64,000 nt of DNA from Escherichia coli (GTDB lineage: Bacteria > Pseudomonadota > Gammaproteobacteria > Enterobacterales > Enterobacteriaceae), in assembly GCF_016026235.1 (NCBI RefSeq), contig NZ_CP065613.1; one strand, given 5' to 3'. A model generated the notes under the pieces. The model had not been told where the DNA came from and did no database searches. It worked only from the letters and a program-made list of their open reading frames with translations. A program made the translations under genes and the position numbers. Below, one piece after another: positions 2,561 through 28,286 of the stretch. Every line of letters starts with the position of its first letter. The first letter of the stretch is position 1.

Positions 2561-3277
<717 letters not shown>

Positions 3278-3298
3278 TTCGAAAGCGCGCACGGACAG

Positions 3299-3345
3299 TC
3301 CCCTCGCCCCCTCGGGGAGAGGGTTAGGGTGAGGGGAACAGGCCC
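3299..3345. repeat. GC-rich C-tract/G-tract element containing a G-quadruplex-type motif (GGGG-AGA-GGG-TTA-GGG-TGA-GGGG at 3314-3336)
   Basis: Read directly from the sequence; four G-runs of at least 3 separated by 3-nt loops, preceded by a complementary C-rich run. Confidence 0.5.
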
Positions 3346-3371
3346 GCACAAGCAAACTTATCAGCAATCTC

Positions 3372-3396
3372 AGGCCGGATATTCATTCGGCCTTTT
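3372..3396 (+). terminator. Hairpin (aggccg / cggcct) followed by a T-run, downstream of adk
   Basis: 6-bp GC stem with a 10-nt loop followed by TTTT. Confidence 0.5.
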
Positions 3397-3512
3397 ACAA
3401 AAACCTCAATCTGCGCTATTCCTTTTTCTGATTTGACCTCTCACAGCAATTAGTTCTTCTTCCTCACTTTTCCGCTACAATTATCAACAAGTTGAATCGA
3501 TAAGAGGCGGTA

Positions 3513-22880: not shown

Positions 22881-23777
<897 letters not shown>

Positions 23778-23795
23778 TTAAGCGCGCGCTTCAAC

Positions 23796-24605
23796 TCACC
23801 CCTGCAATATTTTGTCCATCACGCGCCCCGGCAGCAGGCGCTTAAGCACCATTACCGCCCAGGTCACCAGCGTCACCGGATAGCGCATCTTCGGCTTCTC
23901 GCTAATAAAAGCATGGCGTACTTTGTCCACCACCGCTTCCGGTCCCAACGTAAAGCGGGCGGCGATGCCGGGATTTTCGACTGGTTTATCACTTTGCGTC
24001 TGGTTGACGTTGTCGGTGAAGCGAGTACGAATGGGACCGGGTTCGATCAGGCTGACTTTAATTCCGCTGTGGCGCAGCTCCATGCGCAGTGCGTCTGACC
24101 ACGCCTCCAGCGCATATTTACTGGCCGCGTAAGCGCCACGACCCGGCGTGGAGATTAATCCCATCACCGATGATGTCATCACAATACGCCCTTCACCGTG
24201 CGGTAACATCGCGGGTAACAGGCGCATGGTGAGCTGGTGTGCGCCGAAAAAGTTGGCGGAAAACTGCTGTTCCATCTGCGCACGGCTGATGGTGGAAAGG
24301 GGGCCATACATGCCGAATCCGGCATTGTTAAAGATCCCATACAGACAATTATCGGTCAGGGCGATCACCTCGTCGGCTGCGCGATCAACACTTTCTGGTG
24401 AATCCAGATCGATCAACACGCCGGTAAATCCCATGCTGTTCATGCGCTCAACATCATCCGGTTTCCGGCAACCTGCCAGCACATGAAAACCCTGGCGTTT
24501 TAATTCGAGCGCGCTTTCCAGGCCAATTCCACTGGAACATCCGGTAATTAAGACCGATTTTTGCATAACTTTACCTGTCAGGATCTCCGTTGCTTTATGA
24601 GTCAT
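23796..24605 (-). CDS. ybbO: Short-chain dehydrogenase/reductase (NADP-dependent)
   Basis: 269-aa ORF with TGxxxGIG Rossmann motif and YxxxK catalytic motif. Confidence 0.85.
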   Translation of the reverse strand: MTHKATEILTGKVMQKSVLITGCSSGIGLESALELKRQGFHVLAGCRKPDDVERMNSMGFTGVLIDLDSPESVDRAADEVIALTDNCLYGIFNNAGFGMYGPLSTISRAQMEQQFSANFFGAHQLTMRLLPAMLPHGEGRIVMTSSVMGLISTPGRGAYAASKYALEAWSDALRMELRHSGIKVSLIEPGPIRTRFTDNVNQTQSDKPVENPGIAARFTLGPEAVVDKVRHAFISEKPKMRYPVTLVTWAVMVLKRLLPGRVMDKILQG

Positions 24606-25221
24606 GATTTACTAAAGGCTGCAACTGCTTCGCCATCCAGTCGGCAATAAACGGCTGGGCGTCGTGGTTGGGATGAATACCGTCATCCTGCATCCATTGT
24701 GGCTTGAGGTAGACCTCTTCCATAAAAAAGGGCAGCAGCGGAACATCAAACTCTTTGGCGAGTTTGGGGTAAATGGCGCTAAAGGCTTCATTATAACGGC
24801 GACCATAGTTTGCAGGCAGACGTATTTGCATTAACAATGGTTCAGCGTTGGCGGCTTTGACATCCTGCAAAATCTGGCGCAGCGTTTGCTCGGTTTGCTG
24901 TGGCTGAAAACCACGCAAACCGTCATTGCCGCCCAGTTCAACCAGCACCCAGCGCGGCTGATGCTGTTTCAGCAGAGCCGGAAGGCGCGCCAGCCCTTGT
25001 TGCGAAGTGTCGCCGCTGATGCTGGCATTAACTACCGACGTTTTACTCTGCCACTTATCATTCAACAAGGCAGGCCAGGCCGCGCTGGCAGACATTCGAT
25101 ACCCAGCGCTCAGGCTATCACCCAGAATCAATAACGTGTCCGCTGCGGCGGCACGGAAGGTTAACAGGACCAGGAACAGGAAGGGCAAATGCCAGCGGAA
25201 AACATTGTTGAAGTTCATCAT
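24595..25221 (-). CDS. tesA: Acyl-CoA thioesterase I / lysophospholipase L1 (SGNH hydrolase, periplasmic)
   Basis: 208-aa ORF from MMNFNN with signal peptide and GDSLS motif; overlaps the ybbO start region. Confidence 0.9.
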   Translation of the reverse strand: MMNFNNVFRWHLPFLFLVLLTFRAAAADTLLILGDSLSAGYRMSASAAWPALLNDKWQSKTSVVNASISGDTSQQGLARLPALLKQHQPRWVLVELGGNDGLRGFQPQQTEQTLRQILQDVKAANAEPLLMQIRLPANYGRRYNEAFSAIYPKLAKEFDVPLLPFFMEEVYLKPQWMQDDGIHPNHDAQPFIADWMAKQLQPLVNHDS

Positions 25222-25875
25222 CTTAAGAAGTCCGTCGGTCAGGGGGAGCATGAACTCTCCATCCTCACCGGAGTTGAGCTGGTTGTCAAACGTGGCGAGA
25301 CCATCGCACTGGTGGGCGAGTCGGGATCGGGTAAGTCAACCTTGCTGGCGATCCTCGCCGGGCTGGATGACGGCAGCAGTGGCGAAGTGAGTCTGGTGGG
25401 ACAACCGCTACATAATATGGACGAAGAAGCGCGGGCAAAGTTGCGCGCGAAGCACGTAGGCTTTGTTTTTCAGTCATTTATGTTAATTCCTACCCTTAAC
25501 GCGCTGGAAAACGTCGAGCTTCCGGCGCTGCTGCGCGGTGAGAGTAGCGCGGAAAGTCGTAACGGAGCGAAAGCGTTGCTCGAACAGTTAGGTCTGGGTA
25601 AACGTCTGGATCATCTTCCGGCACAGCTTTCCGGCGGTGAACAGCAACGAGTGGCGCTGGCACGAGCCTTTAACGGTCGACCTGATGTGCTGTTTGCCGA
25701 CGAACCCACCGGCAACCTTGACCGCCATACCGGCGATAAAATTGCCGACCTGCTGTTTTCCCTCAACCGTGAGCATGGCACCACGTTGATTATGGTGACC
25801 CACGACCTGCAACTGGCGGCACGCTGCGACCGCTGCTTACGGCTGGTGAACGGGCAGTTGCAGGAGGAAGCATGA
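25189..25875 (+). CDS. ybbA: ABC transporter ATP-binding protein (LolD-like)
   Basis: 228-aa ORF with Walker A GESGSGKST and LSGGEQQR signature. Confidence 0.85.
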   Translation: MPAENIVEVHHLKKSVGQGEHELSILTGVELVVKRGETIALVGESGSGKSTLLAILAGLDDGSSGEVSLVGQPLHNMDEEARAKLRAKHVGFVFQSFMLIPTLNALENVELPALLRGESSAESRNGAKALLEQLGLGKRLDHLPAQLSGGEQQRVALARAFNGRPDVLFADEPTGNLDRHTGDKIADLLFSLNREHGTTLIMVTHDLQLAARCDRCLRLVNGQLQEEA

Positions 25876-28286
25876 TTGCACGTTGGTTCTGGCGCGAATG
25901 GCGTTCGCCGTCGCTATTAATTGTCTGGCTGGCGCTAAGCCTGGCGGTGGCCTGCGTGCTGGCGCTGGGCAATATCAGCGATCGCATGGAGAAGGGCTTA
26001 AGCCAGCAAAGCCGTGAGTTTATGGCGGGCGATCGGGCGCTGCGCAGTTCGCGCGAAGTGCCGCAAGCGTGGCTGGAGGAAGCGCAAAAGCGCGGCCTGA
26101 AAGTCGGCAAGCAGCTGACTTTCGCCACCATGACATTTGCAGGCGACACACCGCAGCTGGCGAACGTTAAAGCGGTGGATGATATCTACCCGATGTATGG
26201 CGATCTGCAAACCAATCCCCCTGGCCTGAAACCGCAGGCGGGCAGCGTATTGCTGGCCCCACGCCTGATGGCACTGCTTAACCTGAAAACGGGCGACACC
26301 ATTGACGTGGGCGATGCCACCTTGCGGATTGCCGGAGAAGTGATTCAGGAACCGGATTCCGGTTTTAACCCCTTCCAGATGGCTCCGCGTCTGATGATGA
26401 ATCTGGCGGATGTCGATAAAACCGGAGCCGTGCAGCCGGGGAGTCGGGTCACCTGGCGCTATAAATTCGGCGGCAGCGAGAACCAGCTCGACAGCTATGA
26501 GAAATGGTTGTTACCTCAGCTTAAACCCGAACAACGCTGGTACGGTCTGGAACAGGACGAAGGCGCGCTGGGGCGATCGATGGAACGCTCGCAACAGTTC
26601 CTGCTGCTTTCGGCGCTTCTGACCTTGCTGCTGGCAGTGGCAGCGGTGGCGGTAGCGATGAATCATTACTGTCGCAGTCGCTACGATCTGGTGGCGATCC
26701 TCAAAACACTGGGGGCAGGGCGAGCGCAACTGCGTAAGCTAATCGTCGGTCAGTGGTTGATGGTGCTGACGCTTTCAGCCGTTACCGGTGGGGCGATAGG
26801 CCTGTTGTTCGAAAACGTGTTGATGGTGCTGCTCAAGCCCGTTCTGCCTGCTGCACTACCGCCAGCCAGCCTCTGGCCGTGGCTGTGGGCGCTTGGCACC
26901 ATGACGGTCATCTCGCTGCTGGTGGGGCTACGACCATACCGCTTGTTGCTGGCAACGCAGCCTTTACGCGTATTACGTAATGATGTGGTAGCGAACGTCT
27001 GGCCGCTGAAGTTTTATCTGCCGATTGTCAGTGTGGTGGTTGTGCTGCTGCTCGCCGGATTAATGGGTGGCAGCATGCTGCTTTGGGCGGTGCTGGCGGG
27101 CGCGGTAGTACTGGCTTTGCTGTGCGGTGTGCTGGGCTGGATGCAGCTGAATGTACTTCGCCGCATGACGCTGAAATCGCTACCTCTGCGCCTGGCGGTT
27201 AGCCGCCTGTTACGTCAGCCGTGGTCAACGTTAAGCCAGCTTTCGGCATTTTCGCTCTCCTTTATGCTGCTGGCGCTGTTGCTGGTATTGCGTGGCGATC
27301 TGCTCGACCGCTGGCAGCAGCAGCTACCGCCAGAAAGCCCGAACTACTTTTTAATTAACATCGCCACAGAACAGGTAGCACCGCTAAAAGCGTTCCTCGC
27401 GGAACATCATATAGTCCCGGAATCGTTTTATCCGGTGGTGCGGGCGAGACTGACGGCGATTAACGGCAAGCCGACAGAAGGCAATGAAGATGAGGCGCTC
27501 AATCGCGAACTCAATCTTACCTGGCAAAATACGCGGCCCGATCATAATCCGATTGTCGCCGGTAACTGGCCGCCAAAAGCCGATGAAGTATCGATGGAAG
27601 AGGGGCTGGCGAAACGCTTAAACGTTGCCCTCGGTGATACCGTGACTTTTATGGGCGATACCCAGGAGTTCCGCGCTAAAGTGACCAGCCTGCGCAAAGT
27701 GGACTGGGAAAGTCTGCGGCCTAATTTCTATTTTATTTTCCCTGAAGGGGCATTAGACGGGCAACCGCAGAGCTGGCTTACCAGTTTCCGCTGGGAGAAT
27801 GGCAACGGCATGTTGACGCAACTCAACCGCCAGTTCCCGACCATTAGCCTGTTAGACATTGGCGCGATTTTAAAACAGGTCGGCCAGGTGCTGGAGCAGG
27901 TAAGTCGGGCGCTGGAGGTGATGGTGGTGCTGGTCACCGCCTGCGGTATGTTGCTGTTGCTGGCACAGGTGCAGGTGGGAATGCGTCAGCGTCATCAGGA
28001 GCTGGTGGTGTGGCGCACACTCGGTGCGGGGAAAAAACTGCTGCGTACCACGTTGTGGTGTGAGTTCGCCATGCTTGGGTTTGTTTCTGGCCTGGTGGCC
28101 GCAATTGGTGCGGAAACGGCACTGGCAGTGTTGCAGGCGAAAGTGTTTGATTTTCCGTGGGAGCCAGACTGGCGATTGTGGATTGTTCTGCCGTGCAGCG
28201 GTGCGCTGCTGCTGTCGCTTTTCGGCGGCTGGCTGGGCGCGAGACTGGTTAAGGGTAAGGCGCTGTTCAGGCAGTTTGCGGGGTGA
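25872..28286 (+). CDS. ybbP: FtsX-like ABC transporter permease
   Basis: 804-aa polytopic ORF overlapping the ybbA stop by 4 bp. Confidence 0.85.
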   Translation: MIARWFWREWRSPSLLIVWLALSLAVACVLALGNISDRMEKGLSQQSREFMAGDRALRSSREVPQAWLEEAQKRGLKVGKQLTFATMTFAGDTPQLANVKAVDDIYPMYGDLQTNPPGLKPQAGSVLLAPRLMALLNLKTGDTIDVGDATLRIAGEVIQEPDSGFNPFQMAPRLMMNLADVDKTGAVQPGSRVTWRYKFGGSENQLDSYEKWLLPQLKPEQRWYGLEQDEGALGRSMERSQQFLLLSALLTLLLAVAAVAVAMNHYCRSRYDLVAILKTLGAGRAQLRKLIVGQWLMVLTLSAVTGGAIGLLFENVLMVLLKPVLPAALPPASLWPWLWALGTMTVISLLVGLRPYRLLLATQPLRVLRNDVVANVWPLKFYLPIVSVVVVLLLAGLMGGSMLLWAVLAGAVVLALLCGVLGWMQLNVLRRMTLKSLPLRLAVSRLLRQPWSTLSQLSAFSLSFMLLALLLVLRGDLLDRWQQQLPPESPNYFLINIATEQVAPLKAFLAEHHIVPESFYPVVRARLTAINGKPTEGNEDEALNRELNLTWQNTRPDHNPIVAGNWPPKADEVSMEEGLAKRLNVALGDTVTFMGDTQEFRAKVTSLRKVDWESLRPNFYFIFPEGALDGQPQSWLTSFRWENGNGMLTQLNRQFPTISLLDIGAILKQVGQVLEQVSRALEVMVVLVTACGMLLLLAQVQVGMRQRHQELVVWRTLGAGKKLLRTTLWCEFAMLGFVSGLVAAIGAETALAVLQAKVFDFPWEPDWRLWIVLPCSGALLLSLFGGWLGARLVKGKALFRQFAG

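Follow-up and report, generated by a model that had tools for sequence, protein, structure and literature searches.

Head-to-head overlap of tesA and ybbA in Escherichia coli: two coding starts on opposite strands of the same 33 bp

Introduction

Can two divergent genes begin inside each other, with the first codons of both read from opposite strands of the same DNA? The question is raised by tesA and ybbA of Escherichia coli, which were analyzed here in a stretch of 64,000 nucleotides (assembly GCF_016026235.1, contig NZ_CP065613.1; hereafter the window, whose numbering is used for all positions). TesA is a periplasmic enzyme that cleaves lipids, and YbbA is the ATPase of its partner transporter in the membrane. 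The coding sequences (CDSs) of the two genes, tesA on the minus strand and ybbA on the plus strand, share 33 bp at their 5' ends. Head-to-head CDS overlaps of prokaryotes were surveyed by Lillo & Krakauer 2007 (PMC2174442) and Palleja et al. 2008 (PMC2478687). The divergent class is the rarest, with about 1% of the well-characterised overlaps (457/42,055) and 331 of about 15,000 in the second survey, and every divergent overlap of more than 60 bp was dismissed as a misannotation. Is the tesA/ybbA overlap one more misplaced start codon, or do both genes really use these 33 bp? The analysis confirms a short, genuine dual-coding overlap. The account that we favour as a whole, with a probability of about 0.65, combines this overlap with expression signals embedded in the partner gene, reciprocal damping of expression, an extension of tesA derived in the Enterobacterales, and an evolutionary ratchet that holds it.

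Results

Geometry of the overlap and the two start codons

The shared codons are in exact antisense register (phase 123:321 by codon-by-codon comparison). Both frames are open and each has its start codon at its own end of the overlap, so that the 33 bp encodes MPAENIVEVHH for ybbA (plus strand) and MMNFNNVFRWH for tesA (minus strand). Codons M1/P2/A3/E4/N5/I6/V7/E8/V9/H10/H11 of ybbA are the reverse complements of H11/W10/R9/F8/V7/N6/N5/F4/N3/M2/M1 of tesA: the CAT codons of ybbA His10 and His11 are the ATG codons of tesA Met2 and Met1, and the ybbA ATG is the tesA His11 codon. The K-12 MG1655 reference, with tesA at complement(519139..519765) and ybbA at 519733..520419, has the identical 33-bp overlap, and the region 24500-26000 is found at 95% identity or more in 5415 of 5426 complete E. 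coli genomes. An earlier interpretation made without database searches, called here the sequence-only reading, had placed the first 11 codons of both genes on the same 33 bp, and both the coordinates and the K-12 annotation agree with it. It had also held that a tesA start at the second ATG would remove the overlap. This is not so: a start at 25218, which is the choice of the Prokaryotic Genome Annotation Pipeline (PGAP), still leaves an overlap of 30 bp, and only a start at TTG 25188 would abolish it.

For ybbA, the start is ATG 25189. An in-frame TAA at 25162-25164 bounds the open reading frame (ORF) upstream, ahead of the Walker A motif there is no further ATG, GTG or TTG except a GTG that precedes the motif by one codon, and the search for alternative starts between the stop at 25162 and Walker A left no candidate. 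A non-canonical start at ATT 25204 was also considered; the overlap with tesA would persist anyway. YbbA aligns over all 228 residues with the YbbA of PDB 9GE6-9GE8, with a single Q-to-H difference at residue 180, and the cryo-electron microscopy constructs of the YbbAP-TesA complex were built from the MPAEN start. Its first 11 residues lead into the first strand of the ATPase domain. AGGA or AGGAG is found upstream of ybbA in all Enterobacterales loci, at a spacing of 7 except in two. Such a site comes easily, since the Leu and Phe codons of the TesA signal peptide are pyrimidine-rich and their complement is naturally purine-rich and Shine-Dalgarno-like.

Which codon starts tesA? There are four candidates, ATG 25251, ATG 25221, ATG 25218 and TTG 25188, and the TesA lengths in public databases (218, 208/207 and 197/194 amino acids) cover all of them; the gene KPN_00472 of K. 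pneumoniae (594 nt) is exactly 33 nt shorter than b0494. The ATG of tesA M1 and/or M2 is kept in 14/14 Enterobacterales loci, as is the ATG of ybbA M1, and both are found in Salmonella and Klebsiella proteins as well. Read from the double Met (MM start), TesA has a Sec-type signal peptide with positively charged n-region, hydrophobic core and small residues at -3/-1 (RAAA followed by ADT). The N-terminus is removed by signal peptidase; the solved TesA chains all begin at residue 26-28, fitting cleavage after RAAA, and the mature enzyme matches the PDB chains from residue 27. The n-region has 11 residues, against 2-7 in most other sampled taxa. Arg9 is invariant in the 14 Enterobacterales, and only the MM start leaves a positive charge before the hydrophobic core. 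Comparison of these 14 loci settles the MM start as far as sequence alone allows.

Constraint on the shared codons

If both frames are translated, the third position of one codon is the first position of the partner codon, so that almost no free sites are left. Is this seen in the substitutions? Third-position diversity in the overlap is 0.12 among the 14 Enterobacterales and 0.04 among 9 Enterobacteriaceae, against 0.55-0.58 and about 0.50 in control regions of ybbA and tesA (control medians 0.50-0.62). For the next 11 ybbA codons, which share their DNA with the tesA leader only, the numbers are 0.42 and 0.29. In all 340 control windows of 11 codons the diversity is higher than in the overlap. 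There are also paired changes: ybbA H11R goes with tesA M1T in three genera, and ybbA A3T with a synonymous change at tesA Arg9. Synonymous variation is suppressed relative to the non-overlapping parts of both genes, more than chance would give, and from this pattern both frames of the overlap look translated. Within E. coli, the overlap 33-mer is identical in 5414/5417 genomes, two control 33-mers are identical in 5262/5418 and 5283/5417, and two other 33-mers are far more variable; the genomes are not independent samples, so this identity counts as supporting evidence only.

Embedded expression signals

There is no intergenic DNA, therefore the expression signals of tesA and ybbA are embedded in the partner gene (Table 1). 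The tesA transcription start site (TSS) is taken from the table of Kim et al. 2012 (45 reads) and maps to window position 25253. The conserved Leu-Lys-Lys of the first YbbA strand has to be encoded in the leader as well, and for this reason the leader lacks a canonical Shine-Dalgarno. The -35 hexamer of the tesA promoter is conserved in 11/14 Enterobacterales sequences, with a better -10 at the corresponding position in Photorhabdus and Providencia. Consensus promoter scans of 23600-26000 gave no match; they missed the tesA promoter because its perfect -35 is joined to a -10 that matches at only 3/6 positions, below threshold. The ybbA promoter or promoters lie somewhere inside tesA or beyond. 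In the study of Mendoza-Vargas 2009, the ybbA primer yielded no ybbA product. An Rfam search of 24300-25700 gave no match, and no inverted repeat or operator-like palindrome was found in 25100-25330.

The sequence-only reading had made two further claims that can be compared with these data. That expression signals lie inside the partner gene is borne out by the ybbA Shine-Dalgarno within tesA and by the tesA TSS and promoter within ybbA. That both N-termini are constrained is supported by the near-frozen synonymous sites in both frames and by the paired changes. The conservation check that it proposed turned out in its favour, with both start codons retained in the Enterobacterales relatives (14/14 loci).

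Overlapping transcripts and double-stranded RNA

With the published TSSs mapped to the window, the 5' ends of the tesA and ybbA mRNAs can pair over 220 nt or more, and both ribosome-binding regions lie in this stretch. Pairing has support from in vivo data. In a p19-capture study (PMC7373196), double-stranded RNA (dsRNA) over tesA reaches 180-2400 reads per million (RPM), against about 4-35 RPM in neighbours other than ybbA, and in total RNA the antisense reads over tesA are comparable to the sense reads. The captured duplexes lie at about 24726, 24915, 25092, 25098 and 25165-25186 (v2 coordinates minus 493768), and the last one covers the ybbA Shine-Dalgarno. ExcludonFinder (Nucleic Acids Research 2025, PMC12288877) lists tesA-ybbA among 16 divergent excludons of E. 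coli MG1655. The pair has the features of this class, namely opposite-strand neighbours with overlapping 5' transcripts and, as the published data re-read here indicate, dsRNA processed by RNase III. As the two promoters face each other, the geometry predicts mutual interference rather than co-activation. The coupled regulation suggested by the sequence-only reading has indirect support from the overlapping transcripts, the captured dsRNA and the excludon listing, and would likely be antagonistic in sign.

The junction in other Gammaproteobacteria

Is the arrangement peculiar to E. coli? A profile search for TesA homologues in contigs of one genome per species gave 80 gammaproteobacterial loci, spanning Enterobacterales, Vibrionales, Alteromonadales, Aeromonadales, Oceanospirillales, Pseudomonadales, Methylococcales and others. 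In 80/80 loci the gene directly upstream of tesA is that of a YbbA homologue in divergent orientation, and YbbP comes next in 78/80. In the window, tesA adjoins ybbA-ybbP and the proteins are identical or near-identical to those of the solved complex, as expected for the YbbAP-TesA Type VII ATP-binding cassette (ABC) system. For comparing junctions, the Asp codon of the TesA GDS motif and the first Gly codon of the YbbA Walker A motif were used as anchors. The most downstream plausible start was taken for each gene: for TesA an ATG or a start preceded by a Shine-Dalgarno that gives a charged n-region and a hydrophobic core, and for YbbA an ATG or a start with a Shine-Dalgarno.

The junctions of 78 loci fall into five groups. 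The genes overlap by at least 30 nt in 16 loci (14 Enterobacterales with 30, 33 or 39 nt, and two Shewanella with 35 nt), and by exactly 2 nt in 28, where the ATGs of tesA and ybbA share the palindrome CATG; the latter come from 14 named genera and three metagenome-assembled genomes. Nine loci have junctions between -3 and +1 nt, 13 have a gap of 4-20 nt (11 of these are Pseudomonas, with an alternative in-frame CATG), and 12 have a gap of more than 20 nt. The CATG junctions were confirmed in the raw sequence and have phase 123:213. Anchor distances at the CATG loci range from 196 to 307 nt and the N-terminal lengths differ. At these loci the Shine-Dalgarno of each gene is the complement of partner codons 2-5; in Grimontia, for example, the GGAG before the tesA ATG lies opposite the YbbA Thr-Pro codons and the AAGGA before the ybbA ATG opposite the TesA Ile-Leu codons. 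Outside the Enterobacterales the anchor distance is 1 mod 3 in 50/65 loci (33/46 unique genus-plus-distance combinations), as would be expected if all that DNA is coding and the junction is retained. There are also lineages in which 60-450 nt separate tesA and ybbA, namely Marinobacter, Aeromonas, Porticoccus, Methylophaga and Salinicola.

The sampled relatives in sister orders, among them Vibrionales and Aeromonadales, carry CATG. In the Enterobacterales the anchor distance is 195 or 198 (0 mod 3) and the TesA n-region is about 8-9 residues longer. From this comparison, the 30-39 bp overlap of the Enterobacterales appears to be derived, by lengthening of the TesA signal peptide at its 5' end.

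Two other loci may be mentioned. Salinicola tamaricis (L056, about 2900-3500) is the only one with a large tesA-ybbA spacer, of about 445 nt. In Shewanella (L065 and L066, about 3350-3501), the sole plausible tesA ATG with a Shine-Dalgarno gives the predicted 35-nt overlap and an n-region of 22 residues, which may be a second, independent extension of the tesA 5' end into ybbA.

Table 1. Features of the tesA/ybbA locus (window positions) and the CATG junctions of relatives
Feature	Position	Strand	Remarks
Dual-coding overlap, 33 bp	25189..25221	both	ybbA codons 1-11 (+), tesA codons 1-11 (-)
tesA CDS, 208 amino acids	24595..25221	-	thioesterase I / protease I / lysophospholipase L1
ybbA CDS, 228 amino acids	25189..25875	+	ATPase of the YbbAP Type VII ABC transporter
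TesA signal peptide, residues 1-26	25144..25221	-	n-region MMNFNNVFRWH (overlapped), h-region LPFLFLVLLTF, then RAAA before cleavage
ybbA Shine-Dalgarno AGGAAGGG	25178..25185	+	AGGA core 7 nt ahead of ATG; complement of tesA Pro13-Phe14-Leu15 codons
tesA 5' untranslated region (UTR), 32 nt	25222..25253	-	within ybbA codons 12-22; no canonical Shine-Dalgarno
tesA promoter	25261..25289	-	-35 TTGACA 25289..25284, 17-nt spacer, -10 GAGGAT 25266..25261; within ybbA codons 25-34
Two published ybbA TSSs (Kim et al. 2012)	24802 (5' UTR 387 nt), 25034 (5' UTR 155 nt)	+	inside tesA; 2 reads each
RNase III-cut 21-22-bp duplexes captured in vivo	24726..25186	both	p19-capture supplementary tables, PMC7373196
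ybbO	23796..24605	-	downstream of tesA; 11-nt overlap with tesA stop at 24595-24605
ybbP	25872..28286	+	permease partner; 4-nt overlap (ATGA, 25872-25875) with ybbA stop
CATG junctions of relatives (L015, L016, L018-L023, L025, L027-L029, L032, L035-L038, L041, L046, L054, L061, L071, L072, L074-L076, L078, L082)	just upstream of locus position 3501		

Other features of the locus

The four-gene cluster ybbO-tesA / ybbA-ybbP (23796-28286) has no intergenic DNA at all, with junctions overlapping by 11, 33 and 4 nt. Two residues of the present strain differ from K-12. TesA has His for Arg three residues after the catalytic His (24664-24666, minus strand; IHPNHD instead of IHPNRD), and of 5417 complete E. 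coli genomes strain EC09 alone has the same 33-mer around this site. YbbA has His180 (25726-25728, plus strand; LDRHTG instead of LDRQTG in K-12 and the PDB entries), and its 33-mer is identical in only 3 genomes; most genomes differ there at 2-3 sites, unlike in the invariant overlap.

Some promoter-like and terminator-like strings were also noticed. On the minus strand, the codons of TesA Tyr143-Asn144 (24790-24797) spell TATAAT, which is a perfect -10 for the sense direction of tesA, and its near-palindromic complement ATTATAAC on the plus strand lies just upstream of the distal ybbA TSS. Residues around Tyr143-Asn144 are reported to contact YbbP. Within ybbA (25447-25466, plus strand) there is a terminator-like hairpin, GCGAAGCACGTAGGCTTTGT TTTTCAGTCA, followed by a T-run; such sites are no commoner than in shuffled sequence.

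Discussion

How could such an overlap arise, and what would it do? In the account that we favour, the disposable n-region of TesA and the start of YbbA are read from opposite strands of one 33 bp. A one-base frame change at the CATG junction of an Enterobacterales ancestor would have destroyed the ancestral tesA ATG, and tesA initiation would then have moved 31 nt upstream, onto the complement of the ybbA His codons (CAT = ATG). From that time purifying selection on two start codons and two proteins would hold the sequence, which makes the step an evolutionary ratchet. The physical consequence would be reciprocal damping through promoter interference and antisense pairing, which probably falls hardest on the weakly transcribed ybbAP.

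Several points weigh against this account. The start codons outside E. coli are heuristic calls, and the Pseudomonas junction can be read either as a 10-nt gap or as CATG. The start-site and N-terminal datasets TRAINSPOTTER, the Ribo-RET preprint and TetRP have no entries for tesA or ybbA. Both ybbA TSSs have few reads and poor promoter motifs. The dsRNA extends upstream of both of them, to about 24726, so that ybbA mRNA may not account for all of the antisense RNA over tesA; some of it must arise further upstream, from an unmapped promoter in the 3' part of tesA or in ybbO. A measurement of the effect of one gene's transcription on the other was not found in the literature, and it is not obvious how mutual damping would serve TesA and YbbAP, which act as one complex.

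Is the overlap then kept for regulation? One alternative is an adaptive, true excludon, in which the two starts would be kept together by selection, as promoter collision and antisense pairing would fix the TesA:YbbAP ratio or render expression mutually exclusive in some conditions. The spacing of tesA and ybbA is zero or near zero across at least 14 genera despite many flanking indels, E. coli has both the overlapping transcripts and the dsRNA, and the products form one complex, so that their ratio should matter. However, every base of CATG is within a start codon, and its retention is expected regardless and need not imply selection for regulation. Moreover, several lineages did separate the genes, reciprocal expression data were not found in the literature, and mutual exclusion of two subunits of one machine is counter-intuitive. 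We regard this alternative as possible but unlikely. A related view takes the locus as a conserved 'shared-start' module, in which selection keeps the two starts together and reciprocal antisense/RNase III action with promoter collision hard-wires the TesA:YbbAP ratio; it appears doubtful to a similar degree.

The other alternatives concern the tesA start. TesA, or a second isoform of it, might begin at ATG 25249..25251 on the minus strand, giving 218 amino acids (MLPLTDGLLK-MMNF...), a 63-bp overlap and near-leaderless initiation. The ORF is open from 25251, the ATG is found in many Enterobacteriaceae, gene callers yield 218-residue forms, and the published TSS is 2 nt upstream of it, so that the mRNA begins UCAUG. 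Against this, the apparent Shine-Dalgarno GAGGA lies upstream of the TSS and is absent from the tesA mRNA; the ATG is missing in Citrobacter FP75, Rahnella (with a stop codon directly before MM) and Photorhabdus, and is no more than the ybbA His21 codon read on the other strand; the added residues include an acidic one and would lengthen the n-region to 21 residues; and at 63 bp the overlap would exceed the 60 bp above which surveyed divergent cases were all judged misannotations. Being neither conserved nor more than 2 nt from the mapped mRNA 5' end, ATG 25251 was rejected as the main start, and we consider the long form quite improbable. A near-leaderless long isoform is conceivable as a side product, though its ATG is not conserved.

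The weakest alternative, with very little probability left to it, holds that there is no real coding overlap, because TesA would initiate at TTG Leu12 (25186..25188, minus strand), abutting the ybbA ATG, with the 11 upstream codons a leader conserved as ybbA codons: although this start is called in databases (P0067 and P0091, with 197 and 194 residues, and the 594-nt KPN_00472), would resemble the abutting starts of other Gammaproteobacteria and accords with the many published divergent overlaps that are 5' misannotations, the TTG was rejected as it is not conserved (CTC, TTA, TTT or TGG in other Enterobacterales, where the M1 or M2 ATG is always present), has no Shine-Dalgarno and would leave the hydrophobic core of the signal peptide with no positive charge before it, while the third positions of ybbA codons 1-11 are 3-7 times less variable than those of codons 12-22, which are tesA leader in both models, and TesA Arg9 is kept through a non-synonymous ybbA change.

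Given a genuine overlap, how does it compare with known arrangements? Divergent excludons were first described in Listeria. The present pair is itself a listed case and has the overlapping 5' transcripts and RNase III-processed dsRNA of that class (PMC12288877). It differs in that the coding sequences overlap and not just the UTRs, and in that the hallmark of an excludon is mutually exclusive expression, while the tesA and ybbA products work together in one complex. Among the surveyed divergent overlaps, its 33 bp is below 60 bp and in the range of accepted cases; the E. coli phase is 123:321, and the CATG form, 123:213, has the commonest divergent phase. Unlike many catalogued cases, it has conserved start codons, frozen synonymous sites and a mapped TSS in its support, and is not a misannotation.

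Same-strand overlaps of 4 nt (ATGA) or 1 nt are similarly compact and without intergenic DNA, and the same cluster has two same-strand overlaps, ybbA/ybbP of 4 nt and tesA/ybbO of 11 nt. In such overlaps the translation of two genes is coupled on one mRNA. This is impossible for a head-to-head overlap, in which any coupling must come by transcription or antisense RNA. Bidirectional promoters, which reportedly arise from symmetric -10 elements (work ascribed to Warman et al. in 2021), resemble the locus in serving divergent genes from a very small control region. Their TSSs point apart and the transcripts do not overlap, whereas the tesA and ybbA promoters face each other and the transcripts are complementary.

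How much of this is new? The YbbAP-TesA complex of the same genes has been solved (PLoS Biol 2025, PMC12646458; PDB 9GE6-9GE8). In its accessible passages, that paper states that the tesA-ybbO and ybbA-ybbP operons partially overlap, with similar arrangements in other Gram-negatives, and takes the gene neighbourhood as evidence of partnership; these passages hold no analysis of the overlap, the embedded signals, the constraint or the CATG junction. Thus the overlap as such was already known from the reference annotation, from this paper and from the excludon catalogue (PMC12288877). Nothing relevant came out of a literature search on divergent genes whose start codons are shared or overlap. 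The searchable papers also had no analysis of the constraint, no placing of promoter and leader within ybbA codons and no mention of the CATG junction as a widespread form; these are modest additions.

Conclusions

The tesA/ybbA pair is a well-supported exception to the rule by which divergent CDS overlaps are put down to misplaced start codons, and the overlap explains why TesA is recorded in databases with several lengths (218, 208/207 and 197/194 amino acids). There are practical consequences as well. tesA (as 'TesA) and its upstream region are heavily used in fatty-acid strains; whoever edits tesA in its first 11 codons, leader or promoter changes YbbA too, and vice versa, and a clean deletion of tesA takes out the ribosome-binding site and promoters of ybbA. 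What is more, the genes of YbbAP-TesA, a newly recognised lipid-extracting complex, are physically interlocked across the Gammaproteobacteria, and the locus offers a simple system to test whether promoters that face each other and antisense pairing of 5' ends set the ratio of subunits.

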